A stretch of DNA of 62,593 nt from an uncultured Candidatus Saccharibacteria bacterium (GCA_964543265.1 CAZIWN010000003.1:1-62593); one strand, 5' to 3'; positions 12,436 to 33,033 are shown, counted from the stretch's first letter. Notes: generated by a model from the sequence alone, not told the origin. Program-made: numbers and translations.

Positions 12436-12464
12436 TTGACTTTTTAATATTTTAATGCTAAAAT
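12436..12464 (+). promoter_or_regulatory. Near-consensus sigma-70 promoter of GC-rich cassette 1
   Basis: TTGACT, 17-nt spacer, TAAAAT. The SD GAAGGGGG precedes the GTG start at 12506. Confidence 0.6.
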
Positions 12465-12505
12465 AGACAGCAGAAACTCAAACAAAACAAAGAAGGGGGT
12501 GTCGC

Positions 12506-13084
12506 GTGAACATTTATGTGGTTCTTGGCAGTGTCTTGGGAGCGTTGCTTTATTTGCCCTTGTGCTATCAGATTCTGCAGAGGAAAACGACGCAGAATTT
12601 GTGGACGTGGGTGATGTGGGGTATCCTGGACGCGATCGCGCTTCTATCTGTCATATTCCAAGGTGGAAACTATCTCTTATTGGCGGTGTATGTGCTCGGG
12701 AGCACTGCGACTTCTATTGCGATCATCAAGTCTGGAGCCAAGTCTAGCTGGGGCAGATTTGAAACAGTGATTGCACTTCTGGCAGTCGCATGCATGGTCG
12801 TCTGGAGCTTTTCCGGGGCTAAGGTTGCGACTATCGCCAGCACGCTTGCCATAGTCATAGCTGCGCTTCCGCAGATGAAAGATGCCTGGAAGCGACCGCA
12901 CGAGAATCCATGTCTCGTGTATGTCGGCTATACGTTCGCCAATCTTTTTTCCGCAATTGGCGGGAAAGATTGGTCGGTGGAAGAGCGTTTCTATCCGGCA
13001 TCGTGCACCGTTCTCTGTTTAGTAATAACAATACTGATCGCTCGCAAGTTCTGGCTACTAAAGCCAGCTCTAGTGGTCGATTGA
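12506..13084 (+). CDS. GC-rich 6-7-TM membrane protein with two PQ-loop-like motifs
   Basis: 192 aa with a GTG start. LPLCYQILQRK after TM1 and ALPQMKDAWKRP after a later TM. The coding body is visibly much more GC-rich than its flanks. Confidence 0.6.
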   Translation: MNIYVVLGSVLGALLYLPLCYQILQRKTTQNLWTWVMWGILDAIALLSVIFQGGNYLLLAVYVLGSTATSIAIIKSGAKSSWGRFETVIALLAVACMVVWSFSGAKVATIASTLAIVIAALPQMKDAWKRPHENPCLVYVGYTFANLFSAIGGKDWSVEERFYPASCTVLCLVITILIARKFWLLKPALVVD

Positions 13085-13110
13085 TTCCCGCAGATGTACG
13101 CATCGGCGGA

Positions 13111-13150
13111 AAAAGGGGGCAGGTGGTCGAGAAGACTACCCAGCCCCTTT
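13111..13150. terminator. Bidirectional terminator (cassette 1 / ileS)
   Basis: AAAAGGGGGC...GCCCCTTT stem followed by CTTTTTTTTT, between convergent genes. Confidence 0.7.
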
Positions 13151-13161
13151 CTTTTTTTTTA

Positions 13162-16100
13162 TTAAATTTTCTTTAAAAATATTTCGAACGGAGAACTGTC
13201 TATTTCTCCACGAGAGACAAAGTCGTGAGATATTTTTCTATTATCAGAAAATTCGAACAGAGCCACTCTTTTAGCTTTTAAAGAGGATTTAAATTCATCG
13301 ATAAATTTATTAATGATATTTAAATTTTCTTTTGAGGCCGAAATTGAAATCTCTATTCCCTCACCCACTTTCAAACCAGCGTCTTGTCTGGCTTTCTGGC
13401 AGGTGCGCAAGATTTCTCTAAATCTTCCTTCGGCGAATAATTCTGGAGTTATATTTCTATCTAATTCCAATTCGTTTTCTTGGTCTGCGCCAAAAACGAC
13501 TTCTTTGACGTTGATTTCGTCTTTAATAATCTCTATTAAATCTTTATTTTTGGATAAATTTTTTTCTGCTGATTTAACACTTAATTTAGCTAAGGGTTGG
13601 CGGATCTTGATTCCAATTTCTTGTCTCAATGAGAGCGCGTCTGAACAAATTTTCCTCAAAGCTTCCATATTTACAATCAACGCTTTGTTGGCTGGCGTTA
13701 ATTTTTTAAATTTTGGCCAAGTCTCTAAATGCACTGATTCAAGCTTATTTCCAGCATATAAAGATTTATAAACCGCATCTGCTAGAAATGGAGAAAGTGG
13801 AGCAATTAATTTCGAAATATTGAGTAATGCGAAATTTAAGGTTGCAGAGGCAAAATTTAAATCACTCTCTGAAGACGGAGAAGCAAATCTATCTCTCGAA
13901 CGCCTGATATACCAGCGAGATAAATCATCCACTAGCGCCTCTATGGCCTTGGTGGCCGATAAGGCGTCGTAAGCATCTAAGCTTTTAGTTGTGGCTTCTA
14001 CCGCCTCATTAAGACGGATTAAAATCCATTTATCTAAAAGATTAGGAGATTTATCAGGATTAACTTTAGAGATATTAGAGAAAGCATGAGAATAGGTTTT
14101 AAGATAAGCAAAAGAATTATAAACAAGCATATGTAGCTTTCTATAAACTTTCATAATTTCCGCTTCATCATAGCGCTTAGCTTCTCCTGGGTCGCTGGCG
14201 GAAAAGAAAAACCAGCGGATGACATCAACTCCAAATTTTTTAATAGTTTCCATTGGCTCAACAACGTTGCCTTTAGATTTGGACATTTTCTGTCCGTTTT
14301 TATCTAAGAGGAGTCCAGTTGAGATGACATTCTTATATGGCGCGCCCTTGCCTAAAAGGCATGAGATAGCGAGAAGCGTATAGAACCAGCCGCGAGTTTG
14401 ATCCATGCCTTCAGAGATATAATCCGCTGGAAAAGATTTTTTAGTTGTGATGAGATTTGAATTTTCGAAAGGATAATGGATGGAAGCGAATGGCATGGCG
14501 CCAGAATCGAACCAGACGTCTAAAACTTCTTTGACGCGAGTCATTTTCTTGTGACATTTTTTGCAATTCAAATGAACCTCATCGATAAATGGTTTGTGAA
14601 CGTCTAAAAGTCCATCTCCGTTAAATGGAAGATTGCTTGATTTAATATTTCTCAACTCTCCTGGCTGAATATATTTATATTCAAAGGTTTCTTTTTCTGA
14701 TCTTGAATTTAGAGCGGCATCAAGAAGCCATAATGGATCTCCGTGACTTACGATAACTATATTTTTGCCTTTGTATTTAGAGTTGATTTCCCTAAAAGCC
14801 TCGACAATTCTGCGCCTGACTTCAATTTTTGATTCCCCTCCTTGCGGCACTATAGAAAATTTTTCTGGGCCTTGGCCGTGGAATTTTATATATTCTTCAA
14901 TTTTCTGGCCATTAAAAACTCCGGTATCAATATCTTTTAATCTGTCGTCTTTATGAATTTTGGCCCCAGTGGTTTTAGAAATAATTTCTGAGGTTTCTAA
15001 AGTTCTGGCGTAGGGCGATGAAAAAATTAAATCTATCTTTTTGGTTTTTAATTTTTTAGCTAAAGATTCTATTTGCTTAATTCCCTTCTTGGTTAAATGA
15101 GATGGATTCTTTTTTTCATAATCCCCCATGGCGAGAATATTTTTTAAATTATGTTCTGCCTCTCCGTGCCTAACTAAGAAAAAATTGTTGCTGTTATTTT
15201 CACCATATTTTTCTAAATCAGAAATAGAGCTCACAACTTGGTGAGTGTTACAACTAGAGCATTCCCAGATTGGAAGTGGTGTTCCCCAATATCTTTCGCG
15301 AGAAATCGCCCAGTCTTTCAAGTCTTTCAGCCATTCCCCAAAACGTCCATTTTTAACGTGTTCGGGAATCCAATTAATCTTTTTATTTTCTTTAATTAAG
15401 ACATTTTTAACTGCCGACATCTTAATAAACCAAGAACTTCTGGCATAATAAAGAATTGGCGTGGAACATCTCCAGCAAAATGGATACTCGTGTTTATATA
15501 ATTCTCTTTTAAAGAGATTATTATTTGATTTTAAATATTCAAATATCTTGGCTTCGGTGGCTTTTGACTTAACATATTCTCCGGCAAAATCTTTTACTTC
15601 TGAGACAAATTTTCCTGCATCATCTACAGTATGGAACCTTGGAAGTCCTAATTTTTCTCCCAAAACATAGTCATCTTCTCCGTACATAACGGCAGTGTGC
15701 ACCACTCCAGATCCATCGGAGGTCGTCACAAAACTAGCTCCATATACTTGATATGATTTGGCTGATTTTAAGCTTTTAATATCAAATAATGGCTCGTATT
15801 TTAGGCCGATTAAGTCTTTACCTTGAAGCTTAAAAAGTATTTGCGCGTTTTCACCCAAAACTGAACTCACTCTTTCTTCGGCTAAAACAAATATTTCTCC
15901 CCCAACTTTTACACCCACATAATTTATTTTTTCTCCCACAGCCAGGGCAACATTGCCTGGAAGCGTCCAAGGGGTTGTTGTCCAAGAAACGATATAAGCA
16001 TTATCGGCAAAAGAAACTGTGCCAGTGCGCTGGTTTTTTAAAATTTTAAATTTAACGAAAACTGATTCATCTTCCACTTCTTTATATCCTTGAGCGATTT

Positions 16101-16674
16101 CGTGAGAAGAAAGAGCGGTGCCACACCTCGAACACCATGGAAGAACTTTGTGTCCTTTATATAAATACTTTTTCTTATCTATTTCTGATAATAAATTCCA
16201 GATGCTTTCGATATAGTTATTTTCATAAGTGACATAAGGATTATCCATATCCAGCCAGAAACCCATTCTTTCAGTTAATTTTTCCCAATCGGATTTAAAT
16301 TCCCAAACCGAAGATTTACATTCCTTATTAAATTTAGCCACTCCAAAGGCCTCTATTTCTTTTTTAGATTTCAAACCCAGCTTCTTCTCTACCCCAAGCT
16401 CAACCGGAAGTCCGTGCGTGTCCCAACCCGCTTTGCGAGGCACATAAAAACCCTGCATAGATTTGTAGCGCAAAATAAAATCTTTGAAAGATCTGGCTAA
16501 AACGTGGTGAATTCCTGGGCGGCCGTTGGCGGTTGGCGGACCTTCGAAAAATCTGAATACTTTTTTACCTTGCCTATTTTTGAGCGATTTTTGGAATATT
16601 TTTGAAGTTTTCCAAAATTCTAGTGTCTTTTCTTCAACCTCGCTCATGTTGAAGTTTTTTAAATCTCTTAACAT
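13162..16674 (-). CDS. ileS: Isoleucyl-tRNA synthetase (type 2-like) with an inserted histidine-phosphatase domain
   Basis: HIGH-type PGIHHVLAR, editing-domain TTTPWTLPGN, KMSKS. 1170 aa; residues ~497-685 carry RHGEAEHN...SHGD (see finding). Confidence 0.9.
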   Translation of the reverse strand: MLRDLKNFNMSEVEEKTLEFWKTSKIFQKSLKNRQGKKVFRFFEGPPTANGRPGIHHVLARSFKDFILRYKSMQGFYVPRKAGWDTHGLPVELGVEKKLGLKSKKEIEAFGVAKFNKECKSSVWEFKSDWEKLTERMGFWLDMDNPYVTYENNYIESIWNLLSEIDKKKYLYKGHKVLPWCSRCGTALSSHEIAQGYKEVEDESVFVKFKILKNQRTGTVSFADNAYIVSWTTTPWTLPGNVALAVGEKINYVGVKVGGEIFVLAEERVSSVLGENAQILFKLQGKDLIGLKYEPLFDIKSLKSAKSYQVYGASFVTTSDGSGVVHTAVMYGEDDYVLGEKLGLPRFHTVDDAGKFVSEVKDFAGEYVKSKATEAKIFEYLKSNNNLFKRELYKHEYPFCWRCSTPILYYARSSWFIKMSAVKNVLIKENKKINWIPEHVKNGRFGEWLKDLKDWAISRERYWGTPLPIWECSSCNTHQVVSSISDLEKYGENNSNNFFLVRHGEAEHNLKNILAMGDYEKKNPSHLTKKGIKQIESLAKKLKTKKIDLIFSSPYARTLETSEIISKTTGAKIHKDDRLKDIDTGVFNGQKIEEYIKFHGQGPEKFSIVPQGGESKIEVRRRIVEAFREINSKYKGKNIVIVSHGDPLWLLDAALNSRSEKETFEYKYIQPGELRNIKSSNLPFNGDGLLDVHKPFIDEVHLNCKKCHKKMTRVKEVLDVWFDSGAMPFASIHYPFENSNLITTKKSFPADYISEGMDQTRGWFYTLLAISCLLGKGAPYKNVISTGLLLDKNGQKMSKSKGNVVEPMETIKKFGVDVIRWFFFSASDPGEAKRYDEAEIMKVYRKLHMLVYNSFAYLKTYSHAFSNISKVNPDKSPNLLDKWILIRLNEAVEATTKSLDAYDALSATKAIEALVDDLSRWYIRRSRDRFASPSSESDLNFASATLNFALLNISKLIAPLSPFLADAVYKSLYAGNKLESVHLETWPKFKKLTPANKALIVNMEALRKICSDALSLRQEIGIKIRQPLAKLSVKSAEKNLSKNKDLIEIIKDEINVKEVVFGADQENELELDRNITPELFAEGRFREILRTCQKARQDAGLKVGEGIEISISASKENLNIINKFIDEFKSSLKAKRVALFEFSDNRKISHDFVSRGEIDSSPFEIFLKKI

Positions 16675-16682
16675 GTTTTTGT

Positions 16683-18374
16683 TTATATTCTATTCAAAAC
16701 ATTAATTCCTAAAATTTTTAATCCGTTTTTCAAAACTGCACAAACCGTATCAATCATCATCAACCGAGCGTTTCTAAGGTTAATATCTTTATCTTCTATA
16801 ATGCGGGTTGATTCATAGAATCTGTTGGCATCGTTAGCTAATTCATATAGATAGAGAGCTAAACTATTTAAAGAATTTAAATCTGCGCATTTTTTAATTG
16901 ATTCTGGGAAAAGTAAAATTCTTTTCATAATCCTTTCTTCTTCTGGAGAATTAAGCAGAGAAGTGTCTCCTTTTTTCTTATCTTTCACTTTCATTAAGAT
17001 ATTTAAGAAACGGACATAGGTGTATTGGAGATAAGCAGAGCTGTTGCCGGAGAAATCGAGCATAGCATCCCAATTGAAGACAATATCGGAATATGGGTGC
17101 TGTTTGAGATCGTTATATTTTAAGGCACCTATACCAACTGTTTTTGCGATGACACTAATCTCTTTATCCCCTAGCGATGAATTCTTTTCTTTAACTCTCT
17201 CTTTAGCTAGATCGACAATTTTATCGGCTAATTCTTTTAGTTCGATAATTTTTCCTTCACGGGTGGCAAGTTTTTTGCCGTCTTCGCCTAAAACCATTCC
17301 AAATTTAACGTGAATTAATTCTGTGTCTTCTAGCCCTAAGAGCTTGGCAATCGCGAATAATTGTTCGAAGTGCAGGGTTTGCTGATTAGCAACGACGTAT
17401 AAAATCTTTGATGGTTTGTAGCTTTTAATACGATCTTTCAAACTGGCGATATCGCGGGTAATGTAGAGCGTGGCGCCGTCGGATTTTCTAATCAGTGCTG
17501 GCGGTAGGTTTTCTAGTTCAATAATCTGAGCCCCTTCTGATTCTTTCAGAATTCCCAAGCTTTCAATTGAATCAATAGTTTTGCCTAAAACTTTTTCGTA
17601 GGCGCTTTCTCCTCTTACCACATCAAAAGACACCCCTAAAATTTCGAGCATTTTGTCGGTATCGGCCATAGAAAGACTGCTAAACATTTCCCAAAGCTTT
17701 CTATTTTCAGGATCTCCGTTTTCTAATTTTCTAAATTCTTCTTGGCCTTTAGATTCTAATTCTGGACTAAGCTTTAATTCTTGATGAAATTTAACGTATA
17801 AATCTAGCATCGTCGCCATCGGATCTTTTTTTAACGTTTCTTTGTCGCCCCAGATTTTATAGGCAGCGATGAGTTTGCCGAATTGTGTTCCCCAGTCGCC
17901 GATAAAATTCCAACGGACAACGTTGTAGCCCAAAGTTTTATAGACATTGGCTAAGCCGTCGCCAATGATAGTGGAGCGCAAATGGCCAACGTGCATTGGT
18001 TTGGCGATATTAGTTCCGCAATATTCTACGATGACAGTTTCCCCTCTTCCGATTTTAGATCGGCCAAAAGAATCCCTGTCTTTATAAATACTCTTTAACT
18101 CTTCTTGGAGAAATTCTTTTTTGATAAAAAAATTGATGAAGCCTGGAGCGACAAGCGAAACCGAAGAAAATCTTTTCAAGATTTCTTTATCTGCCAAAAG
18201 GGTTTTAACAATCTCTTCGCCGATTTTTACTGGAGCTGTTTTATTCTTTTTAGCTAGAATAAAAGCGAGATTCATCGAATAATCCCCAAGTTTTTCATCT
18301 GGGGGGGTCAAAATATCAAAATTATCTTCTTTAAATTTGCTAGCTATTCTTTCTTTTAACCAATCTTTTAACAT
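16683..18374 (-). CDS. argS: Arginyl-tRNA synthetase
   Basis: 563 aa with class I motif PMHVGHLRS and an ArgRS-typical C-terminal anticodon-binding region. Confidence 0.9.
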   Translation of the reverse strand: MLKDWLKERIASKFKEDNFDILTPPDEKLGDYSMNLAFILAKKNKTAPVKIGEEIVKTLLADKEILKRFSSVSLVAPGFINFFIKKEFLQEELKSIYKDRDSFGRSKIGRGETVIVEYCGTNIAKPMHVGHLRSTIIGDGLANVYKTLGYNVVRWNFIGDWGTQFGKLIAAYKIWGDKETLKKDPMATMLDLYVKFHQELKLSPELESKGQEEFRKLENGDPENRKLWEMFSSLSMADTDKMLEILGVSFDVVRGESAYEKVLGKTIDSIESLGILKESEGAQIIELENLPPALIRKSDGATLYITRDIASLKDRIKSYKPSKILYVVANQQTLHFEQLFAIAKLLGLEDTELIHVKFGMVLGEDGKKLATREGKIIELKELADKIVDLAKERVKEKNSSLGDKEISVIAKTVGIGALKYNDLKQHPYSDIVFNWDAMLDFSGNSSAYLQYTYVRFLNILMKVKDKKKGDTSLLNSPEEERIMKRILLFPESIKKCADLNSLNSLALYLYELANDANRFYESTRIIEDKDINLRNARLMMIDTVCAVLKNGLKILGINVLNRI

Positions 18375-18437
18375 AAACTATATAAGAAATATTAAACTTT
18401 TAATGGATTAAACTCAAATTTCTTATATAATGAATTT

Positions 18438-18875: not shown

Positions 18876-18892
18876 GAATAGAAAAATGAAGA

Positions 18893-19714
18893 TTAGCTAC
18901 AAGAAAATTTTGCTTGAGGAAAATTTTTAAGCCTGACTTCGTATCTAACTGGAACATATTTGTTTCTCATGTTTTCTGGTATAAAAACTATAACCATTTC
19001 GTTTTTAATTTTTAAACTTAACAAAAAGACCATAATTTCTTCACATAAATTAATGAGATTTTCCCAACAAATTTCTAGGATTTCTTTAATTCCCTGCCCT
19101 TTATGCGTTGGAAAGATTGTTTTTAATTTATCTCCTTCTAAGATATATTTTAATTCTGATAGTTTAAATCCTTCGTGTTCAATTTCTGCACGAGTTTTAT
19201 TAAAAATAATAAACCAATTTTTTTGATGATCTTTTATCATGCTTGATAAGGCAATAAATCTTTTATCATCGCCTTTTAGGGTAAATCTTTTTAATCCTTT
19301 TTCATATTTTTTAGCATCATCGTCAAACAAAAAACCGATATTTGATCCCATAAATCTAGAATGACGTATTAAGCAATTAATTGCTATCTTTCCACGAATA
19401 AAAAAGTCTTTAAAATGCATATTAATATTGTCATCAATTGGATTTTTTATATCTATCTGACTTCCATTACGGATTCCGTCCTTGCCCTCATCGATATCTT
19501 TCAAGTGGTTAGATATTAAATTTTCCAAACTTTCTTTTGCGTATTTGGTTTCTAATAGATTTTGGAAAATCGCTTCATAACTTTTATCATATGCTAGTCT
19601 TTCATTCCTCGGATAAGCACAATCTCTTATTTGGCACATTTGCATAATAAATCTATTAAAAAAGCCCTCCTTGTCATTCATTGTATAAGAATGCCTTAAA
19701 ATACTTAGTTCCAT
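18893..19714 (-). CDS. Hypothetical protein (orphan, between smpB and ssrA)
   Basis: 273-aa AT-rich ORF. I recognise no motif. Confidence 0.5.
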   Translation of the reverse strand: MELSILRHSYTMNDKEGFFNRFIMQMCQIRDCAYPRNERLAYDKSYEAIFQNLLETKYAKESLENLISNHLKDIDEGKDGIRNGSQIDIKNPIDDNINMHFKDFFIRGKIAINCLIRHSRFMGSNIGFLFDDDAKKYEKGLKRFTLKGDDKRFIALSSMIKDHQKNWFIIFNKTRAEIEHEGFKLSELKYILEGDKLKTIFPTHKGQGIKEILEICWENLINLCEEIMVFLLSLKIKNEMVIVFIPENMRNKYVPVRYEVRLKNFPQAKFSCS

Positions 19715-19791
19715 ATTATGATTATATGATACTTATTCACGTAAATATACAAATAAACCACCTAGAAATTGGAGTGGTTTATTTGTATTTG

Positions 19792-20139
19792 TGGAAATGG
19801 CGGGAGTTGAACCCGCGTGCAAAAGTTAAATTATTTCCGCGTCTACAAGCTTAGTAGTTGGCTTCTTGCGAAGCTAAAACGATATAGAAAATTTTAATTT
19901 TTAATCCCGATTCGAAAATTTTCTGGAAAATTCGTCGGGACGATCTCTATATATAACACCGGAGAATCCCCTATGGAGAATCGAGGTCCGATGACACCAG
20001 GTTAAGCTAAAGCGAAAGCTGGCATTCTGCTAACTGAATTGTTGGCAGTAATTGTTTGCCTGAATTGATTTGCGAGTACTCTGGCGAAACTCGGCTTGCA
20101 ACGGAAATTATCTAATTTAAGCCAAAGCCTGTCATTCCC
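19792..20139 (-). ncRNA. ssrA: tmRNA (SsrA)
   Basis: 5' GGGAATG pairs with 3' CATTTCC-A, including the G3:U70 wobble. T-arm GCGGG-TTCAACT-CCCGC. Internal tag frame reads ...GCC AAC AAT TCA GTT AGC AGA ATG CCA GCT TTC GCT TTA GCT TAA (ANNSVSRMPAFALA*). Adjacent to smpB. Confidence 0.85.
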
Positions 20140-20147
20140 GTAGCTGT

Positions 20148-20176
20148 ATTATATCAGAATCGAGTTTATTTGACAA
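20148..20176 (-). promoter_or_regulatory. ssrA promoter
   Basis: On the minus strand: TTGTCA, 17 nt, TATAAT, then 8 nt to the mature 5' G. Confidence 0.6.
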
Positions 20177-20198
20177 GAGCTGGAAAAACCTTTAAAAT
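20170..20198 (+). promoter_or_regulatory. Consensus sigma-70 promoter of GC-rich cassette 2
   Basis: TTGACA, 17-nt spacer, TAAAAT. SD AAGGAG lies 11 nt before the ATG at 20245. The -35 overlaps the ssrA -35 on the other strand. Confidence 0.6.
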
Positions 20199-20244
20199 AG
20201 TCTCTAGTACCTAGTTTCTTGGGAATTAAGGAGATCTTTCCCAG

Positions 20245-20457
20245 ATGGATTGCCAGACTTTCAGGGCGTTGGCGAGCAGGGATCCGGGTAAGGGTGGTCT
20301 CGAGCCCGACACGGCGGCGAAGTTCGCCAGGCATGCGGTGAAGTGCGGTGAATGCTCCATTTTTCTGGTCACGAGGACGAAGATGGGCGAACAGGGCAAT
20401 GCGCGCCTAGTTGCCGATCTGGTGGAGAAAGAAAAGGAGGATATCGCGAGAAACTGA
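20245..20457 (+). CDS. GC-rich mini-protein with ZAS-like motif (HxxxCxxC), paralog 1
   Basis: 70 aa: MDCQTFRAL...HAVKCGEC. SD AAGGAG upstream. Confidence 0.6.
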   Translation: MDCQTFRALASRDPGKGGLEPDTAAKFARHAVKCGECSIFLVTRTKMGEQGNARLVADLVEKEKEDIARN

Positions 20458-20487
20458 AACGGAGCAAAAATCAGGAGGAGTGATTCG

Positions 20488-20730
20488 ATGCTCAAGAAGA
20501 GGAGGAGGATGACCTGTCAGGAATTCCGAGAGGCGTTTTCAAAAGAAGGGAGCGAAGCGGGACACGAAGACGGATTCGAGGCGAGAATGGCAGAGCAACT
20601 CGCACACGTCAGAAGATGCAAGAAGGGATGTTTCGAATTCATGAACAGAAACTCCCCTACCAAGCCCAAGAGGGCGAAGCATGGAAGCGGGAGTTGGTGG
20701 TTCATCAACCCACAATTGGCCTTTACGTGA
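20488..20730 (+). CDS. GC-rich mini-protein with ZAS-like motif, paralog 2
   Basis: 80 aa: ...MTCQEFREAF...HVRRCKKGC. SD AGGAGG upstream. The terminator's 5' arm lies inside its 3' end. Confidence 0.6.
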   Translation: MLKKRRRMTCQEFREAFSKEGSEAGHEDGFEARMAEQLAHVRRCKKGCFEFMNRNSPTKPKRAKHGSGSWWFINPQLAFT

Positions 20731-20755
20731 GGCCAAGTGTGGGTTGTTTTTTTAT
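20706..20755 (+). terminator. Intrinsic terminator after paralog 2
   Basis: 16-bp stem CAACCCACAATTGGCC / GGCCAAGTGTGGGTTG (one mismatch) followed by TTTTTTTATTTT. Confidence 0.75.
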
Positions 20756-20842
20756 TTTAATTTGCTTTTTTAATATTTCGAAAACATAATTATTTAGTCT
20801 CCCGGTTTCGAAAGACCTGCTGGATTCATGGAGGGGCGAACC

Positions 20843-20986
20843 ATGATGACCTGCGAAGCTTTCAAAATCCTTTCAAGGAGAAAAGATCTCGGAAGAACAG
20901 CGTCGCTTCACACCCTCCAAGAGATGGTGAAGCACGCCATAAAGTGCAAGGGATGCACCAGAAGGGACTTGAAACAGAAGAAATGA
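20843..20986 (+). CDS. GC-rich mini-protein with ZAS-like motif, paralog 3 (below the ORF-track cut-off)
   Basis: 47 aa: MMTCEAFKIL...HAIKCKGC. SD GGAGGGG lies 5 nt upstream. An alternative in-frame ATG at 20828 gives 52 aa. Confidence 0.55.
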   Translation: MMTCEAFKILSRRKDLGRTASLHTLQEMVKHAIKCKGCTRRDLKQKK

Positions 20987-21001
20987 TGAATGAACAGCTC
21001 T

Positions 21002-21044
21002 AGACCTCGATCCTGCCAAAGGCGTTTCGAGGTCTTATATTTTA
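21002..21044 (+). terminator. Intrinsic terminator after paralog 3
   Basis: AGACCTCGA / TCGAGGTCT stem, 16-nt loop, then TATATTTTA. Confidence 0.6.
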
Positions 21045-21096
21045 CAAAATCAATATAACTTACTACAATAACAATAATAGATTCCTTAAATAATAG

Positions 21097-21633: not shown

Positions 21634-21644
21634 CCTTGGTTGTT

Positions 21645-21753
21645 AGTATTAATCTTTTTAGCGACCACTTCGTTATTCTTCCTCGAAGTATTCGCATGGC
21701 TCTTACATACATCTTCGTCAGAATGCCTCGTGTTCACTAAAAAGATTAATACT
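21645..21753 (+). repeat. Structured ~100-nt intergenic repeat, copy 3 of 5
   Basis: 17-bp perfect closing stem AGTATTAATCTTTTTAG / CTAAAAAGATTAATACT. Core TTCTTCCTCGAAGTATTCGCATGGCTCTTACATACATCTTCGTCAG. Confidence 0.65.
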
Positions 21754-22040: not shown

Positions 22041-22046
22041 AAAACC

Positions 22047-22394: not shown

Positions 22395-22421
22395 AAAAAA
22401 CCGCCACAATGGCGGTTTTTT
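22395..22421. terminator. Bidirectional terminator
   Basis: AAAAAACCGCC-ACAAT-GGCGGTTTTTT between convergent rplT and the MGMT-like gene. Confidence 0.75.
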
Positions 22422-22731
22422 ATTTTTCAACTCTATCCCCTACAATTTTTACCCCTTCAGACAAAAGCAATTTCTTTTTTAAAGCTATACCGCGATTGTA
22501 GCCGCCAAGTTTATGACTGGAAAGTATCACTCGGTGGCACGGGATTTGCTGGTAGTTCTGGTTTTGGCTCATTATTTTGCCCACTAGGCGCCATCCCCGG
22601 GTTAGGCCTGCGATAGTGGCCACCTCTTTGTATGTTAAAACCTCTCCTTTGGGGATGCCTTGGACCACTCCTATAATGCGGCCTATGATGTCTTGGTTGT
22701 TGTTGCTGCCCCACGTTTTCTTGTTTTTCAT
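22420..22731 (-). CDS. Methylated-DNA-protein-cysteine methyltransferase-like protein (single DNA-binding/active-site domain)
   Basis: 103 aa with IPKGEVLTYKEVA and the active-site IPCHRV. Confidence 0.75.
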   Translation of the reverse strand: MKNKKTWGSNNNQDIIGRIIGVVQGIPKGEVLTYKEVATIAGLTRGWRLVGKIMSQNQNYQQIPCHRVILSSHKLGGYNRGIALKKKLLLSEGVKIVGDRVEK

Positions 22732-23173
22732 TTTGAGCTTGAAGCTGAGCCGGTTTTTTAATATAGGCGTAGGCTTTTTCTAAAATCTTAATTGAGTATT
22801 TATATTTAGCCAAAATACGCTTGGCTTCTGATAATGTAAACCAACCATATCCTTCATGGTATTCTTTCAGAATTATTGTAGATTGAGTAGTTTCGGCAAG
22901 ATAGAGTATGACAATTTTGAAAATATCGTCTGGACCTTCCTTATAGACGAATTTTTCGTAAGTTTTGAAATTGCCAAGGAGTTTAAGTTCGGAGCTTTTT
23001 AGCCCAGTTTCTTCTCTAACTTCTCTGAAGGCTGTCTGCCAACTTCTTTCATCGCCTTCTATTTTTCCCTTTGGAAAATTCCAGTAGTTCCTGCCGTGAT
23101 ACAAAATCAAGAATTTGATTCCCTCTTCGGTCTGCCTGAAGATAACAATCCCGGCAGATATCACTTTTTTCAT
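22511..23173 (-). CDS. Nudix hydrolase with a long R/P/Q-rich C-terminal tail
   Basis: Nudix box GKIEGDERSWQTAFREVREETG. The last ~73 codons overlap the MGMT-like gene out of frame (22511-22731). Confidence 0.7.
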   Translation of the reverse strand: MKKVISAGIVIFRQTEEGIKFLILYHGRNYWNFPKGKIEGDERSWQTAFREVREETGLKSSELKLLGNFKTYEKFVYKEGPDDIFKIVILYLAETTQSTIILKEYHEGYGWFTLSEAKRILAKYKYSIKILEKAYAYIKKPAQLQAQNEKQENVGQQQQPRHHRPHYRSGPRHPQRRGFNIQRGGHYRRPNPGMAPSGQNNEPKPELPANPVPPSDTFQS

Positions 23174-23203
23174 ATGTTTTTTAATTAATAAATGACAATC
23201 TGC

Positions 23204-23280
23204 TGCGTTGCAACCTGCGAGACTCCTTCGGAGTAGTTATATTACTATACCTCAGTCGTTTCTCGGTCGCGCCTTGCATC
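23204..23280 (+). repeat. Structured intergenic repeat, divergent copy 4 of 5
   Basis: TGCGTTGC...GACTCCTTCGGAGTAG...TTACTATACCTCAGTCG...GGTCGCGCCTTGCATC shares the blocks GCGTTGC, CTCCTT(C)GGAGTA, TAC(T)ATAC and GTCGCGCCTT with copy 2. Confidence 0.4.
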
Positions 23281-23364
23281 TTATCCTTTCTTAATTAAAA
23301 CGCTTAATTAATATGCTTTAATAATAACAGATATTTATCATTTTAGGAAGCCCTCACATTTTTT

Positions 23365-23399
23365 ATAAAAAAAGAAGACCGCCAGCGAAGGAGGTCTTC
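23365..23399 (-). terminator. Intrinsic terminator of GC-rich cassette 3
   Basis: On the minus strand: GAAGACC-12 nt-GGTCTTC followed by TTTTTTTAT. Confidence 0.65.
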
Positions 23400-23418
23400 C
23401 TTCTGCGGCGGTCGGCGA

Positions 23419-23637
23419 TTACGAGTAGATGATCTGCTCTCCTCTGGGTCCGACTGTGAACACCTCCGCAACGAAGCCTGGCCCAGAACCTTGGCAGGAA
23501 ATCCGCGAGGAACCTACGTCGAATCCAGCTCTGGACATCGAGCTCCTGAGATCGCTCTCGGAACCCGAACCTTCCACGATTTCCCGCAGAAGAAGTCTTG
23601 CCTCTTCTGCGGTCAGGTCGCGAAATGCCTTGGGCAT
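23419..23637 (-). CDS. GC-rich 72-aa protein of unknown function
   Basis: MPKAFRDLTAEEARLLLREIVEGSGS.... Strong G-at-codon-position-1 bias in this frame, with its own promoter, SD-like AAAGGA and terminator. Confidence 0.55.
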   Translation of the reverse strand: MPKAFRDLTAEEARLLLREIVEGSGSESDLRSSMSRAGFDVGSSRISCQGSGPGFVAEVFTVGPRGEQIIYS

Positions 23638-23684
23638 AACTTATCCTTTTTTTGCCTAGGATTCAATCCTCGTCAATCTTTACT

Positions 23685-23713
23685 ATTGTATCAGATAGTA
23701 TAAATATTGTCAA
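23685..23713 (-). promoter_or_regulatory. Near-consensus sigma-70 promoter of GC-rich cassette 3
   Basis: On the minus strand: TTGACA, 17-nt spacer, TACAAT. Confidence 0.55.
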
Positions 23714-23724
23714 TAGTACTTATT

Positions 23725-25470: not shown

Positions 25471-25477
25471 TTTGGGT

Positions 25478-26119: not shown

Positions 26120-26201
26120 AATTTAAGTATAGCCATGAATGGTTAAAAATTAAATGCCGAAAAGTGAAATGCACTTATGGCGCATTTTATATATCTACTA
26201 A

Positions 26202-27632: not shown

Positions 27633-28761
27633 TAAGAATAGCTGTTATAAAAATTAGGAACAAAAAATAGACGGATATGGTTTTTGGGCCTCTAAACATA
27701 GACCTGGATTCACCAACCTTATTAACTTTGAGCCACATAAGAATTATAAAGATACATTCAATACTAAGAAAGATGCCACCTATAATTCCGGTTAGCAGAA
27801 TAAAACTTTTTAAACCAGCTATATAAAGAAAAATCGGCAAGAAAACTACGGCCGAGAATCTTATTATTTTTCTTATTTTTAAATCAAACCTTAAGATATT
27901 GAAAGTATTTAAACCAACTACAATATAAGAACTCCAAAGACACAAAACACCCAACACGCCAATTGTTATTAAAAAAATGGGATGAATTCGGTCAATCAAA
28001 CCAGAAACAGAATCTTCGGAAATACTCCCATAAGACAAACTCAAAACCCCAAAAACGAAAACTGCATAGATTATCCCAGGAATTATTGTTCCCAATAAAA
28101 CAGATTTTTTAAGATTTTTATCCGACTTAATACTTTTAAATCCCCTAAAATAATCAACCAATGAAGGAATAGCAACTGATCCCGAAAGAGAAAAGAGGAT
28201 GGTTCCTAGTGGTATAAAAATATTTTTTAAAGAAACTACTTCAGGAAAAATAATTCCCGAGCCTAAATTGGTTAAATTTTTAAATCCATAAATGAAAATA
28301 GAAAGAATAATGCCTATTATTCCCCACGTCACAAGGAGCTCTGTAAAAGCTAGTTTTTTAACATTTAGGAAAATTGCGAAGGATCCAAAAAGCCAAAAAA
28401 TTAAAACTTTTAAGATTTGACTCATGTCTGGGTAAATGAGATTTAAAAAACTCTCTGAGAGAATTAAATAAATAACCATAACCAAAATCATCTCAACCAC
28501 ACCCATCAAGATCGATGACCAAAAAGCATACTTACCTAAATACATTTTTGCATATCCCACAAAACGATGATTACCAGGAGTTCTTTTTATGATATCCGCA
28601 TACATTAAATGAATTAGACAGAATGCCCAAATACTTATTCCTAAAAATAAAAATCCCAGCAAAATGCCGGAACTTTTAAAAACATAGGGAAGAGCAAAGA
28701 CCCCAGCCCCAATTATGGTGCCGGAGAGAATACCCATTGGAAGCAAAAAATTCTTATACAT
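27610..28761 (-). CDS. Amino-acid permease-like membrane protein
   Basis: 383 aa, ~11 TM. N-terminal GTIIGAGVFALPYVF is typical of amino-acid/aromatic permease families. Confidence 0.55.
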   Translation of the reverse strand: MYKNFLLPMGILSGTIIGAGVFALPYVFKSSGILLGFLFLGISIWAFCLIHLMYADIIKRTPGNHRFVGYAKMYLGKYAFWSSILMGVVEMILVMVIYLILSESFLNLIYPDMSQILKVLIFWLFGSFAIFLNVKKLAFTELLVTWGIIGIILSIFIYGFKNLTNLGSGIIFPEVVSLKNIFIPLGTILFSLSGSVAIPSLVDYFRGFKSIKSDKNLKKSVLLGTIIPGIIYAVFVFGVLSLSYGSISEDSVSGLIDRIHPIFLITIGVLGVLCLWSSYIVVGLNTFNILRFDLKIRKIIRFSAVVFLPIFLYIAGLKSFILLTGIIGGIFLSIECIFIILMWLKVNKVGESRSMFRGPKTISVYFLFLIFITAILNEILSKF

Positions 28762-29121
28762 TTATTGTTTTACTTCGTAAACTTGATCGCCAACTCTGGC
28801 ACGCTTAGAGACTTTTACACCAATCAACTTTCCTTTTGGGGCTACGGAAACATTTTTATGATCTATTTGAATTGATTTTAAAATTTCTTCGAAATTTGTA
28901 GTTGCTCCTTTGATTTTTATTTTTGAACCTGCCTTTAAGGGTTTTTTAAACTTAAAAATAGCAACTTTTATTTTGTTGTAGAAATGAGTAACTTCCCCTA
29001 TCGGCTTACCTAGATTTTCAACTTTTTTTATTTTTACTACGGACTTTTTAATAACCCTGCTTTTTGTTTTGGGTTTTGATTTGGATTTGGACTTAGCCTT
29101 TTTCTTGATGATTTTGGCCAT
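28762..29121 (-). CDS. Small protein: Lys-rich N-terminus plus EF-Tu-domain-2-like beta-barrel
   Basis: KKKAKSKSKSKPKTKSR tail, then GEVTHFYNKIKVAIFKF..LKAGSKIKIKG...VGDQVY. Confidence 0.35.
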   Translation of the reverse strand: MAKIIKKKAKSKSKSKPKTKSRVIKKSVVKIKKVENLGKPIGEVTHFYNKIKVAIFKFKKPLKAGSKIKIKGATTNFEEILKSIQIDHKNVSVAPKGKLIGVKVSKRARVGDQVYEVKQ

Positions 29122-29172
29122 AGTAATTAAATTAATAATTTTAAGTGAGAACTTAAAATCTAAAGAAGAAAA

Positions 29173-29796
29173 TTAACAAATATTTCCTAAATATTTTCTG
29201 TCTTTTTCAATCATTTCAACCAACTTATCAACTAATTCAACTGGATCGCTCGAATAAACAATATTTCCCATTCCTCTATGGGAATTTTTTACTATTTCCT
29301 CAACCATATCCGCAACACCTCCGGTTTTAGTCAAAACCGCCATTGGCTTATTGCTTTCAAAGCCGATAGTGAATTCATTTAAGGTTCCTATTCTTCCGCA
29401 AATAAAAACTATACCAGCGGCTGCTTTCATTAAAAGAAGATTTCTGCCGGAATATTCTTGGCCCGTGTAAACAATGCTGTCATGATAATCTAACGGTAAA
29501 TGATAGGTTTTAACGTGAGCTAATTCTGATCCTGCCGGAGAATAACCGATAACAGTTCCACCTTCTTCTTTGGCGCCCTTAGCTGACCAATAAGGAATTC
29601 CGGTTGTGGCTCCAGTAACTAAAATCATTCCCCTCTTAGCAATCTCTCGCCCAACTATTTCGGCTTTATCTATGGCATCAATTGCGCAATAACCAGTTTC
29701 TGCGGCTCCAGATACAGCAATTGATAATTTTACACAATAAGGATCCGTTTCCCCTTTAACACCTTTTTTATCTTTAGAAGCTATTTTTTTAGGCAT
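29173..29796 (-). CDS. LOG/TIGR00725-like Rossmann-fold protein
   Basis: IAVSGAAETG..., LVTGATTGIPYWSAKGA, TGGVADMVEEI pattern. Confidence 0.5.
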   Translation of the reverse strand: MPKKIASKDKKGVKGETDPYCVKLSIAVSGAAETGYCAIDAIDKAEIVGREIAKRGMILVTGATTGIPYWSAKGAKEEGGTVIGYSPAGSELAHVKTYHLPLDYHDSIVYTGQEYSGRNLLLMKAAAGIVFICGRIGTLNEFTIGFESNKPMAVLTKTGGVADMVEEIVKNSHRGMGNIVYSSDPVELVDKLVEMIEKDRKYLGNIC

Positions 29797-29844
29797 GATT
29801 TTTACTTAGATGTGATAATTATAACATAGACACACTTCTTTATT

Positions 29845-31194
29845 TTAAAGATTAAATGATTCGCCTTGGCGAGGAACATAAGCAGAAATAGCTAATTGAT
29901 CATTTATTTTAGCTCTTAAAGCAACGCTTGCCGATTCTTCACCTTGAACAACAAAAACTTTTTTCAAAGAATGCCTCATGGGACTTAGCCACTCTATTAA
30001 TTGTTTTTGATCTGCGTGAGCACTCCAAGCGCCGACTGCTTTTATCTTTGCGCGAACTGGAATTTTTTCTCCAGCAAGAGTTATCGATTGAACTCCGTCT
30101 AAAAGCTGCCTGCCTAAAGATCCTTCGGCCTGATAACCGACTATAAAAAGAGTGCTATTTGGATCTGGAAGATAGCGAACCTCATGATGCAGGATGCGCC
30201 CACCATGACTCATACCTGAGCCGGCAATAATTATCTTGGGAGCTGGAACGGTGTTGATCATTTTTGAATCATCTGTAGTAGGCGTCATCGTGAGTCCCTT
30301 AAATTTTAAAAAGTGATCAACTGACTCCATTGTGCGGGATCCATCCTCAACAAAATAATCTTTATATTTTCTATAAACCTCAACTAATTTTATAGCCAAG
30401 GGGCTGTCTAAGAAGATTGGTATTTTGGGAATCCTCATATTATCAAACAACTCGTCTATGGAATATAAAAGTTCTTGCGTGCGCTCCATAGCAAAAGCAG
30501 GGATGAGAAGTGTTCCGCCGGCTTTGACCGTATCCTCTATTAAATCTTCTAAATCATCTCTTCTTACTCCACTTGGTTCGTGAAGTCTGTCTCCATAGGT
30601 TGACTCGATAATGCAGTAAGTCGGATTTTTATCATAAAAATCTTTGTTGCCGATAATTGGAGCTGGAGAATTTCCAAGATCGCCAGAAAAAATAATTTTT
30701 TCGCCCTCACATTCAATAACCAAAAAACTTGATCCTAAAATATGGCCCGCGTTATAAAAAGTTACCCTAAATGGACCAATTTCAAAGGGATGATAATAAG
30801 GAACTCCTTCCCAATAAAGCATTAGATTATGAACATCTTCTTCTTTATAAAGAGTTGGAAGTTTAAATTTTATAGCTTCTTTCTCTAAAATACGCTCGGA
30901 ATCAACTAATAAAACTTCTGACAAATCCCTAGTCGGAGGAGTGGAATATATCTTGCCCTTAAACCCTTCTTTTAAGAGTTTTGGTAAACGACCGATGTGA
31001 TCGATGTGGGAATGAGTTATTAAAACTGCGTTAATTGTTTTTGGATCATAAGCAAAAGGATCCCAATTGTGACGCTCTGAAAAATTACTTCCCTGCTGAA
31101 GACCGCAATCAATTAAAATTCTAAATCCCTCTGATTCGAGAAGATAGTTTGAGCCAGTTACAGATTTGGCTCCGCCTTGAAAAGTTATTTTCAT
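29845..31194 (-). CDS. MBL-fold beta-CASP family hydrolase (RNA-metabolising type)
   Basis: HSHIDHIGRLP, a beta-CASP-length insert and C-terminal SAHAD. Confidence 0.75.
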   Translation of the reverse strand: MKITFQGGAKSVTGSNYLLESEGFRILIDCGLQQGSNFSERHNWDPFAYDPKTINAVLITHSHIDHIGRLPKLLKEGFKGKIYSTPPTRDLSEVLLVDSERILEKEAIKFKLPTLYKEEDVHNLMLYWEGVPYYHPFEIGPFRVTFYNAGHILGSSFLVIECEGEKIIFSGDLGNSPAPIIGNKDFYDKNPTYCIIESTYGDRLHEPSGVRRDDLEDLIEDTVKAGGTLLIPAFAMERTQELLYSIDELFDNMRIPKIPIFLDSPLAIKLVEVYRKYKDYFVEDGSRTMESVDHFLKFKGLTMTPTTDDSKMINTVPAPKIIIAGSGMSHGGRILHHEVRYLPDPNSTLFIVGYQAEGSLGRQLLDGVQSITLAGEKIPVRAKIKAVGAWSAHADQKQLIEWLSPMRHSLKKVFVVQGEESASVALRAKINDQLAISAYVPRQGESFNL

Positions 31195-31253
31195 AAAAAT
31201 AAAATTCTAATACCAAAAAGGTATTGAATGATATTATTATAGACTAAAAAGAT

Positions 31254-32465
31254 TTAATTTTCTCTTTTAGTTATTTTCTCAACAGTATTTTTATCGCTCC
31301 AAGGAATTTTTTTACCGCCTGCCATTCTTAAAAATCTTTCCGAACCCTTGCCGGTAATAATGATTACATCACTGGGTTTAGCTGATGAAATTGCTGATTT
31401 AATCGCCTCTCCTCTGTCGATTATTTTTTTATATTTTTTATCTTTAGGAATACCTTTTGAAATTTCATCTAAGATAGTATCTGGGTTTTCATTAAAGGGA
31501 TCTTCATTAGTTAAAATAATGTCATCGCAATAGTTGCTTGCAATGCGGCCAAATTCTGGCCTTTTCCATTTATCTCTACCACCCCCAGCAGAACCAAAAA
31601 CACAGATAAGTTTTTTGTTGGGGCGCATCTTTTTTAGAGACGAATAAACTGCCTTCATAGAGTCTGGTGTGTGAGCGTAATCAACAATAACTTCGAATGG
31701 GTTTTTAATTACAAACTCCATTCTTCCTGAAACTCCTTTAAATTGAGAGATTGATGATATTATTTTTTCCTTAGAAACTCCAAGTTCTAAAGCAATACTT
31801 GTCGCAGCTGATGCGTTTTCTATATTAAAATCTGAATCGAACCAATTTTTAAAAACTTCTTTGCCGCCGAAAAACTTTTCTCTAATTTCTAATGAATTAA
31901 ATTTAATTATCTTACCAAAACCCTTAGCTAAGCTGGCAAATTTTTCACTTTCCTTGTCATTATTGTTTACTACAAATAGTTTTTCTTTTTTTCTGGATTT
32001 AGTGGCAATATTATCAAAAAATTTTAATTTTGCGTTCAGATAATTTTCAAAAGAACCGTGAGACTCGATGTGTTCTGGGTGGATATTCAAAAAAGCTGCA
32101 CAATCAAAATCTATAAACATATCTCTATACTGCACAACTCCTTGAGAAGTTACTTCTAAAATCGCGAATTTACAGCCGGAATTTTTTGCTTGAGAAAGAA
32201 ATTTTTGGATAAAAAATCTTCCTGGCATAGTGTTTTGTGTGGGATTAACGGTTTCAAGGTCGCCAAACTTCATATTAGCGGAAGATAACATGGCTGTTTT
32301 AAACCCAGCAGATTTTAAAATGAAATATAAAATTTCTGCAGTGGTTGATTTGCCTTTGGTGCCGGTTATACCAATGACATATAAGTCTTTTGAAGGAAAG
32401 TTGTAGATGGCGGCTCCTAAAAATGATAGAGAAAAATGATATAGCTGTTTTAGCTTAGAAAACAT
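31254..32465 (-). CDS. murE: Mur ligase family protein (MurE-like, short N-terminus)
   Basis: ITGTKGKSTT P-loop, DYAHTPDS, GSAGGGRD. Confidence 0.65.
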   Translation of the reverse strand: MFSKLKQLYHFSLSFLGAAIYNFPSKDLYVIGITGTKGKSTTAEILYFILKSAGFKTAMLSSANMKFGDLETVNPTQNTMPGRFFIQKFLSQAKNSGCKFAILEVTSQGVVQYRDMFIDFDCAAFLNIHPEHIESHGSFENYLNAKLKFFDNIATKSRKKEKLFVVNNNDKESEKFASLAKGFGKIIKFNSLEIREKFFGGKEVFKNWFDSDFNIENASAATSIALELGVSKEKIISSISQFKGVSGRMEFVIKNPFEVIVDYAHTPDSMKAVYSSLKKMRPNKKLICVFGSAGGGRDKWKRPEFGRIASNYCDDIILTNEDPFNENPDTILDEISKGIPKDKKYKKIIDRGEAIKSAISSAKPSDVIIITGKGSERFLRMAGGKKIPWSDKNTVEKITKREN

Positions 32466-32493
32466 ATAAATAACTATAAGTGAAAATTTCTTT

Positions 32494-32537
32494 AAAATAA
32501 AATCACCCTCGCCAACCTTGCGGTTAAACGAGAGTGA
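32494..32537 (-). terminator. Intrinsic terminator of GC-rich cassette 4
   Basis: On the minus strand: TCACTCTCG-17 nt-CGAGGGTGA (with a G:U wobble only in the minus-strand RNA), then TTTTATTTT. Confidence 0.6.
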
Positions 32538-32554
32538 ATTGAGTCAGCGACCAA

Positions 32555-32923
32555 TCAGGCCGCGACTACCACCCCCTGACCACCCCTGCACATCTGGAAC
32601 GCCGAGCAATCTGCGCATGCAGGCTTGGGGACTGCCCCCACGTCTTCTCGGCACACCCTCTGAAGTGCAATTTCCGAGAAGTCTCCTTCAACGTCGCTCG
32701 CGCACCCATCGTGAGGATCAAAGACCCCAACGACAGGGACCTTGTCTCCGTCTTCCGTGATGGGTGCAGTCTCGGACCCATCTTCTCCATAGACGACTTC
32801 GAGATCCAGGCAGACCGGCAGCCGAAGAGCATCATCTCGACGAGAGAGATGCCTTCCTCTGCCAACACCCCTCAACTGATTCATGAACTCTTCGTCATCT
32901 CTCAGCTGTCCCACACTGGCCAT
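32555..32923 (-). CDS. GC-rich acidic 122-aa protein with a C-terminal Cys cluster
   Basis: MASVGQLRDDEEF...CADCSAFQMCRGGQG. Strong G1 codon bias. SD-like AAGGCGGAG lies 9 nt before the ATG; the ORF-track version starts at GTG 32956. Confidence 0.5.
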   Translation of the reverse strand: MASVGQLRDDEEFMNQLRGVGRGRHLSRRDDALRLPVCLDLEVVYGEDGSETAPITEDGDKVPVVGVFDPHDGCASDVEGDFSEIALQRVCREDVGAVPKPACADCSAFQMCRGGQGVVVAA

Positions 32924-33003
32924 GGCCCCAAATCTCCGCCTTCTTTCCCTAGGCACCGGACAATTGCCCGCGACCCCATATCGCAGGCCAAGTACTGATT
33001 TAT

Positions 33004-33033
33004 ATTATATACCCTATTTTGAAATTAATGCAA
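33004..33033 (-). promoter_or_regulatory. Candidate sigma-70 promoter of GC-rich cassette 4
   Basis: On the minus strand: TTGCAT, 18-nt spacer, TATAAT, immediately after the ruvA stop. Confidence 0.45.

Follow-up and report, generated by a model that had tools for sequence, protein, structure and literature searches.

Small accessory islets of ORFan genes are short stretches of atypical composition that occupy the intergenic gaps of a conserved backbone, are distributed patchily among relatives and mostly encode products without a known function. Commonly described islets are AT-richer than the genome that carries them. Two further systems invite comparison: the non-coding RNA (ncRNA) genes of AT-rich genomes, of which GC-rich intergenic islands are the classical structured-RNA signature, and the genomic islands found at ssrA, the gene of the transfer-messenger RNA (tmRNA). 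Here we describe four GC-rich islands, c1 to c4, in a 62,593-nt stretch of an uncultured Candidatus Saccharibacteria bacterium (GCA_964543265.1, CAZIWN010000003.1:1-62593), which is referred to as the window and was analysed at its full length. The islands share with accessory islets their shortness (0.2-0.9 kb), their atypical composition, their placement in gaps of a conserved backbone, their patchy occurrence and the general absence of a known function. They differ in being GC-richer than the genome, in having native-looking promoters and terminators, in lacking an integrase, a tRNA-att duplication or an insertion sequence and, for c2 and c4, in holding a fixed position across species while diverging very fast. 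In kind they are ordinary accessory islets, and we put at about 60% the probability that all four are genuine small accessory units with different histories and not the products of one mobile element. The noteworthy property of c2 and c4 is the combination of fixed position, extreme divergence and persistent GC richness.

The GC content of the window is 34.5%, and a 150-nt scan of the whole 62.6 kb gave a mean of 0.345 (sd 0.067). The original prediction had described four places where composition jumps to high GC, and the scan ranked exactly these sites at the top, as the four longest and highest GC islands of the window. The islands delimited by the scan are the following:

12477-13159: c1 island, GC 0.505
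20161-20756 (GC 0.51) and 20787-21041 (GC 0.47): c2 island, in two parts
23327-23694: c3 island, GC 0.50
32467-33045: c4 island, GC 0.52
22452-22755: weaker fifth island, GC 0.48, coinciding with the overlap of the NUDIX and MGMT-like genes

The open reading frames (ORFs) of the islands have a GC content at third codon positions (GC3) of 0.57-0.70, against a median of 0.28 and a range of 0.15-0.39 in the 51 remaining ORFs of 90 aa or more, and are outliers. The tmRNA gene beside c2 shows a GC excess that is similar in kind but weaker. Concerning other AT-rich Paceibacterota loci, 37 GC islands (at least 16 points above background over at least 200 nt) were counted in 699 kb, about one per 19 kb, and several of them are ribosomal RNA or tmRNA genes. 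The density of islands over the whole window is therefore not exceptional; the window is unusual only by the clustering of four islands within 21 kb, and GC-rich islets of this architecture probably occur widely across the phylum. By dinucleotide signature c4 alone stands out clearly. The four islands do not resemble each other in this respect, so a single donor is unsupported, and an island-versus-island comparison revealed no sequence in common. The idea that the islands might form a single family of cassettes is thus not sustained, while their alternative description as lineage-specific small accessory genes fits c2, c3 and c4.

The islands are set in a syntenic backbone. Pfam, ARAGORN and Rfam confirmed the predicted flanking genes, namely those of RNase J and IleS (rnj/ileS) for c1, tmRNA and IF3 (ssrA/infC) for c2, PolX and NUDIX (polX/nudix) for c3, and RuvA and a Mur ligase (ruvA/murE) for c4. 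More than 30 Paceibacterota loci preserve the order IleS-ArgS-SmpB-tmRNA-IF3-L35-L20-(MGMT-like)-NUDIX-PolX-MFS...beta-CASP-MurE. The closest species-level genome is a Paceibacterota metagenome-assembled genome (MAG) from Lake Baikal (Baikal-deep-G188, SIBX01000009.1; L011), whose housekeeping proteins are 85-94% identical to those of the window, with 0.03-0.10 non-synonymous (dN) and 0.8-1.5 synonymous (dS) substitutions per site, the latter being Nei-Gojobori values near saturation. The Baikal contig ends inside ileS, the rnj/ileS gap lying outside the comparison, and the murE/ruvA gap was compared with this genome only. Absence from the sister species is seen for c3 only, c2 and c4 being present there. 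An ancestral presence of the same genes at the same loci, which would have spoken against accessory status, is hence found for c2 and c4 at the level of the sister species; it is not seen for c3, and for c2 it does not extend to the more distant relatives.

Island c2 lies beside ssrA and consists of three tandem mini-protein genes with the following elements:

19789..20139, minus strand: tmRNA gene (ssrA), found by ARAGORN and Rfam, inverted relative to about 35 other Paceibacterota
20170..20198, plus strand: c2 promoter-like site, TTGACA-17-TAAAAT, 11/12 match, -35 conserved in the Baikal genome
20245..20457, plus strand: c2a ORF, 70 aa, C3...H30-x3-C34-x2-C37
20488..20730, plus strand: c2b ORF, 80 aa, same Cys/His motif as c2a but with C-x3-C
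20706..20758, plus strand: internal terminator hairpin and T-run, an inverted self-match whose 5' arm encodes the C-terminus of c2b
20840..20986, plus strand: c2c ORF, 48 aa from an ATG preceded by a Shine-Dalgarno (longest ORF from 20828), same motif as c2a
21002..21045, plus strand: final terminator, followed by the infC promoter region, about 95% identical in the Baikal genome

The Baikal genome has three ORFs with the c2 motif at the same locus, and the layout is identical in both species: promoter, ORF1, ORF2, terminator, ORF3, terminator. The T-run of the internal terminator is partly conserved there. At the DNA level the left side (tmRNA 5' end and -35) and the right flank (final terminator and infC promoter) are each about 95% identical between the two species, but the body between them is essentially unalignable and the boundaries of divergence are sharp. 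The encoded proteins are only 24-43% identical, with a dN of 0.5-1.0. In about 35 other relatives the tmRNA gene shares its strand with infC, which it precedes by 3-100 nt, and the c2 gap is empty; both the filled gap and the inversion of ssrA are therefore confined to the clade of the window and the Baikal genome. The ssrA promoter (TTGTCA-17-TATAAT, 20176-20148, minus strand) stands back-to-back with that of c2, and the two -35 hexamers overlap at 20170-20176.

The elements of c4, all on the opposite strand, are:

33005..33034, minus strand: c4 promoter-like site, TTGCAT-18-TATAAT, read from the sequence
32555..32923, minus strand: c4 ORF, 122 aa, acidic, with a C-terminal R..VG....P.C..C.AF..CRG.Q block
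32490..32535, minus strand: terminator hairpin and U-run, conserved in the Baikal genome with one compensatory pair

Its Baikal orthologue is an 84-aa ORF at the orthologous site (16052-16306), and both share VVGV.D...VEG...R..VG....P.C..C.AF..CRG.Q. The two proteins are 41% identical, with a dN of 0.64 against 0.098 for the adjacent murE; both retain three Cys, and the length of most indels is divisible by three. That c4 is coding is moderately supported by these sequence features. A word-indexed search of 5.8 billion proteins returned c4 itself only. An exhaustive phmmer search of 1.84 billion representatives gave a sole match (P0016, E-value = 3.9e-12), which was rejected as chance: it is the translation of a 153-nt tandem repeat, its score is inflated by six identical 43-aa matches of 29 bits each, and its locus shares no DNA similarity with c4. 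The repeat array itself (L109, GCA_900461555.1, positions 5001-6020) comprises six 153-nt units of 59% GC, is annotated as a 339-aa protein and lies where the surrounding GC is 46%, on a 3.5-Mb chromosome that, judging by the genes nearby, appears to belong to a Legionella.

Taken together, c2 and c4 are clade-specific and occupy the same sites with the same architecture in the sister species, and their bodies diverge about ten times faster than the neighbouring genes between near-identical promoters and terminators. Their presence at the same loci at a dS of about 0.8-1.5 counts against a recent acquisition of either. Concerning their GC richness, a two-state amelioration model (equilibrium GC3 of 0.28, the observed dS and a start of up to 100% GC3) sets a ceiling for neutral decay after the split at a GC3 of about 0.42-0.48, or 0.55-0.61 with the lowest dS; the GC3 actually measured is 0.57-0.70 for the window and 0.48-0.56 for the Baikal genome. 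By this rough estimate the GC3 of c2 and c4 is too high for one acquisition before the split followed by neutral decay, which points either to a replacement of the bodies after the split or to GC kept by selection or biased conversion. A reading built on this point would see c2 and c4 as hypervariable loci kept GC-rich actively, through replacement of the bodies via their flanks or through selection or GC-biased conversion against the AT bias. Flanks of about 95% identity beside bodies of about 45-55%, a GC3 above the decay ceiling and a dN about ten times that of the neighbours all speak for it. Nevertheless, the comparison covers two genomes only and shows no other alleles, as the further assemblies at hand (SRR12487045 and DRR736439) are of the same strain as the window; the near-saturated dS makes the ceiling rough, and the high dN could also stem from proteins this small being under relaxed constraint. 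We regard this reading as possible but doubtful. On the preferred reading of the islands as accessory islets, their GC richness would come from a foreign or atypical origin. In c2 and c4, where neutral decay ought to have removed it after the two species diverged, it would also call for a subsequent replacement of alleles or for active upkeep.

The products of c2 offer a plausible functional lead. All three share M-x-C-x2-F...H-x3-C-x(2-3)-C, and across the six ORFs of the two species the His and the first Cys of this motif are invariant, the second Cys follows after two residues in five (after three in c2b), and both the N-terminal Cys and the M-x-C-x2-F start are present in 5/6. The C...H-x3-C-x2-C arrangement is a putative zinc site. 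It recalls the zinc-binding anti-sigma (ZAS) domain (zf-HC2; RsrA, ChrR, RslA), which is recognised by H-x3-C-x2-C with an upstream Cys/His ligand, a pattern that the c2 ORFs display with an N-terminal Cys at about 25-residue spacing; in addition, c2 is predicted as a small all-helical domain (the AF2 model of c2a is a 4-helix bundle, pLDDT 80.8) and the window encodes an extracytoplasmic function (ECF)-type sigma factor. On the other hand, the c2 proteins are only 48-80 aa long, come in three tandem copies, have no neighbouring sigma gene and fall below the Pfam cut-off. Specifically, c2a reached 12.5 bits (E-value = 0.17) with zf-HC2 (PF13490), against a cut-off of 22.2, and the other five of the six members had no match to this family. 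PDB sequence and profile searches found no significant anti-sigma match, the anti-sigma factor DdvA appearing at E-value = 0.93, and Foldseek of the c2a model against PDB returned nothing better than E-value = 2.3. The only ECF-type sigma in the window is 17 kb away from c2. We consequently describe c2 as ZAS-like by motif and claim no membership in the ZAS family; its products may be soluble zinc-binding regulators of anti-sigma type. A bolder proposal, that c2 and c4 are fixed-position, GC-renewed hypervariable micro-loci which encode anti-sigma-like zinc mini-proteins under diversifying selection, acting as regulators or as effectors against the sigma factors of a partner, seems to us a long shot.

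The ECF-type sigma gene mentioned above (2287-2850, plus strand; Sigma70_r2 and r4_2, 187 aa) is followed by an overlapping ORF of 127 aa with a single transmembrane segment (to 3205, plus strand) and no Cys/His motif, and the two are likely a sigma/anti-sigma pair.

Concerning the surroundings of ssrA, an orphan ORF of 273 aa and 28% GC (18893-19714, minus strand) lies between smpB and the ssrA 3' end. It is absent from the Baikal genome, where the gap is about 50 nt, and a search for an att-like duplicate of the ssrA end gave nothing. In another relative (L012, 76% L20 identity) several small ORFs of 58-131 aa with elevated GC (2385-4400) lie directly 3' of the tmRNA gene, which suggests that the surroundings of ssrA are perhaps a recurrent variable spot in the group. 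The likeness to genomic islands at ssrA is that variable DNA adjoins the gene, with c2 on one side and the orphan ORF on the other; the difference is that c2 sits on the promoter (5') side, with neither an integrase nor a duplicated ssrA 3' end.

Island c3 and the copies of a structured repeat are arranged as follows:

23685..23713, minus strand: c3 promoter-like site, TTGACA-17-TACAAT, extended TG, 11/12 match, the best of the region
23419..23637, minus strand: c3 ORF, 72 aa, Shine-Dalgarno AGGAT, or alternatively the body of a small RNA (sRNA) of about 300 nt
23362..23413, minus strand: terminator hairpin and U-run, from sequence and predicted fold
12274..12380, unstranded: structured repeat copy upstream of c1
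21645-21753, unstranded: structured repeat copy between infC and rpmI
23196..23290, unstranded: structured repeat copy of more divergent sequence, located between c3 and the start of nudix, in the 5' untranslated region of nudix, absent from the Baikal genome

The polX-nudix gap measures 552 nt in the window, 109 nt in the Baikal genome and 7-30 nt in about 20 other relatives; the empty-site test made use of a metagenome scan with PolX, which found relatives of at most 65% identity. c3 is a species-specific insertion of about 370 nt at this otherwise near-zero junction. At 23324-23352, 29 nt can still be identified as ancestral sequence from upstream of nudix, which indicates two separate insertions, one of c3 and one of a structured-repeat copy. 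The repeat is about 100 nt long; its copies at 12274 and 21645 are about 75% alike and that at 23196 is more divergent. The original prediction had noted such copies next to two of the cassettes, at 12274 and 23204, and both were recovered together with the third. No homologue of the 72-aa product of c3 was present among 5.8 billion proteins (word-indexed search, self only), and the island codes either for an orphan protein or for an sRNA.

Island c1 differs from the others in having identifiable relatives. Its elements are:

12436..12464, plus strand: c1 promoter-like site, TTGACT-17-TAAAAT, extended TG, 10/12 match
12506..13084, plus strand: c1 ORF, 192 aa, GTG start after a GAAGGGGG Shine-Dalgarno, GC 0.50, GC3 0.58
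13113..13160, plus strand: terminator hairpin and T-run, abutting the stop codon of the convergent ileS, read from the sequence

Thirteen homologues were found at 38-51% identity, none closer, so that the family counts 14 proteins, all confined to Patescibacteria-like contigs. The AF2 model (pLDDT 89.8, pTM 0.84) shows seven transmembrane helices in two triple-helix bundles, as in the PQ-loop/SWEET fold, and its top 11 PDB matches are all the KDEL receptor, SWEET proteins (AtSWEET13, OsSWEET) or cystinosin (TM 0.56-0.67; Foldseek probability about 1, with E-values of only 0.04-0.3). The model shares with these proteins the 3+1+3 architecture and a Pro-Gln pair, conserved at residues 122-123. 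It differs in that none of 13 family members matches Pfam PQ-loop or MtN3_slv, the best match being DUF6962 (E-value = 0.004, under its cut-off), and in the restriction of the family to Patescibacteria-like contigs. The simplest reading of the model is a membrane protein of PQ-loop/SWEET-type fold. The homologues that could be located lie at unrelated loci, beside nusA, secE-nusG or rpmA, in genomes of 48-59% GC whose composition their genes equal. Lateral acquisition of c1 from a higher-GC relative within the Patescibacteria is for this reason most likely. According to a published survey (PMC12455944), the genes transferred into Patescibacteria originate mostly from other members of the phylum.

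Each islet comprises its own predicted promoter and terminator and is placed in an intergenic gap of the syntenic Paceibacterota backbone. Among protein genes of the 12.2-23.8 kb region, the top three sigma-70-like matches are those preceding c3, c2 and c1. The near-consensus promoters that had been proposed for all four islands therefore hold for these three; in c4 the -10 (TATAAT) is perfect, but the -35 (TTGCAT) agrees at 3/6 positions and the site is absent from the scanner list. A hairpin with U-run was seen after each unit, both in the sequence and in predicted folds, in line with what had been proposed.

We next consider whether a high-GC donor, such as the host of an episymbiont, could recently have supplied all four islands, which would already have been placed on native signals. 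The GC and GC3 far above background, the absence of c3 from the sister species, the c1 relatives in higher-GC genomes and the atypical dinucleotide signature of c4 would agree with this. Against it stand the presence of c2 and c4 with the same loci and architecture in a species at dS of about 1.3, the failure of searches in 5.8 billion proteins (c3 and c4) and in 1.84 billion representatives (c4) to turn up a donor-like homologue, the confinement of the c1 family to Patescibacteria-like genomes, none of which is a plausible host, and the want of a common signature among the islands. We judge such a common recent origin unlikely. The acquisition from a high-GC donor that was originally proposed is supported for c1 only, and there with higher-GC Patescibacteria and not a host as the likely donor pool; the presence of c2 and c4 in the Baikal genome counts against their recent acquisition, and no donor was found for c3.

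The islands also bear no trace of mobile machinery, as had been noted originally. A repeat search detected no repeats linking or flanking them, no shared ends and no att sites, and Pfam scans of the window proteins revealed no integrase or transposase. A 36-nt similarity (D9) downstream of c1 and c2b was judged to be chance, as it is AT-rich and partly inside ileS. None of the six island products had a significant match in Pfam, NCBIfam, PHROGs or PADLOC, with no PHROG match and no PADLOC defence-protein match better than E-value = 0.03. Searches by tblastn of c1, c2a, c3 and c4 against 50,697 phage genomes, as well as a scan of IMG/VR with the c1 family, also returned nothing. The islands accordingly lack the integrase, att repeats and phage-like genes that define integrase islands and prophage remnants. 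If they are accessory islets, their insertion would have proceeded by DNA uptake followed by illegitimate or flank-homology recombination, with no site-specific machinery.

Another alternative is that some islands, c3 foremost and possibly c4, are structured ncRNA genes. They resemble the GC-rich intergenic ncRNAs of AT-rich genomes in having their own promoter and intrinsic terminator, and since stop codons are AT-rich, ORFs are expected by chance in GC-rich DNA; indeed the ORFs of c3 and c4 overlap others on both strands. Folding yields z-scores of -3.3 (c3) and -2.6 (c4), although both include the terminator, c3 contains a perfect internal hairpin of 12 bp, and a gene caller skipped c2 and c3 on one contig. 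However, Rfam 15 gave no match in any island, either at gathering scores or at E <= 5, and protein motifs are conserved in c1, c2 and c4. A Shine-Dalgarno is correctly spaced before the ATG starts of c2, c3 and c4, the Cys/His motif of c2 with its M-x-C-x2-F N-terminus recurs in five of six ORFs from two species, and c4 keeps its three Cys with indels mostly in multiples of three. The two c4 sequences give RNAalifold no statistical power to detect covariation, and the codon-phase and tblastx results for c4 do not discriminate between coding and non-coding. The periodicity with G at codon position 1 that had been attributed to every island ORF is present in c3 and in c4 (G1 0.52, versus 0.27 and 0.30 at the other positions), partial in c2a (G1 of 0.42, higher than G2 but not than G3, 0.45) and absent from c2b and c2c. 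On balance an ncRNA nature of these islands appears improbable.

Finally, assembly chimeras or contaminant reads on a contig of the Candidate Phyla Radiation (CPR), which the abrupt change of composition at the island edges might suggest, can be dismissed: all junctions were recovered at 99.8-100% identity in the Logan assemblies of two different runs (SRR12487045 and DRR736439), with contigs spanning rnj-c1-ileS, ssrA-c2-infC...nudix-c3-polX and ruvA-c4-murE, and c2 and c4 are syntenic in the unrelated Lake Baikal MAG.

The same assemblies illustrate how such genes are treated by annotation. Of two identical contigs that were compared (L110, from DRR736439, and L105), one had c3 called and the other had neither c3 nor any c2 ORF called; an exact-protein look-up of c2a returned no record, such ORFs being skipped by gene callers. 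The annotation of minigenes with such unusual composition is inconsistent, and protein databases easily miss them.

Certain points weigh against our view of the four islands as accessory islets. No donor was found for c2, c3 or c4, the coding status of c3 is unproven and rests on a single sequence, and the c4 DNA alignment has no codon periodicity and yields tblastx matches in several frames. The decay argument uses near-saturated Nei-Gojobori dS values and a simple model, so its estimate is rough. Lastly, the ZAS view of c2 depends on the motif, with zf-HC2 at E-value = 0.17 in one member, DdvA at E-value = 0.93 and no structural match.

Apart from the islands, several features of the window were recorded. 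IleS (13162-16674, minus strand, 1170 aa) contains a complete His_Phos_1 domain at residues 499-664, within its catalytic domain, and its matches in relatives are of similar length. At 22420-23173 (minus strand) the NUDIX ORF extends about 70 aa beyond its domain, so that about 220 nt are shared with the beginning of the MGMT-like DNA_binding_1 ORF; this overlap is also present in the Baikal genome (6386-7124), and in another relative (L091) the genes are neighbours that do not overlap. Two ATPases, one a TraG/VirB4-like P-loop ATPase and one of T2SSE/PilB type (45413-47116 and 59014-60738), may be part of a DNA-uptake or secretion machinery. The presence of dnaA and dnaN at 52290-55033 (52.3-55.0 kb) places the window near the replication origin.

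The genomes of CPR/Patescibacteria are tiny and highly syntenic, so their variable positions must encode lineage-specific biology, including host interaction. The locus described here indicates that this variability can take the form of minimal units, each a promoter, gene and terminator, that carry no mobile-element machinery. If GC is neither actively maintained nor renewed by exchange, the islands are routine ORFan accessory genes, which would still call for caution, as GC-rich islands in AT-rich genomes give ORFs on both strands that gene callers treat inconsistently. If, instead, GC is actively maintained or alleles are exchanged, such loci would be a tractable marker of recombination or selection in an uncultured phylum and their Cys/His mini-proteins would be candidate regulators or effectors; should the proposal of hypervariable zinc mini-proteins be true, they would represent a previously undescribed class of fast-evolving genes of CPR symbionts.

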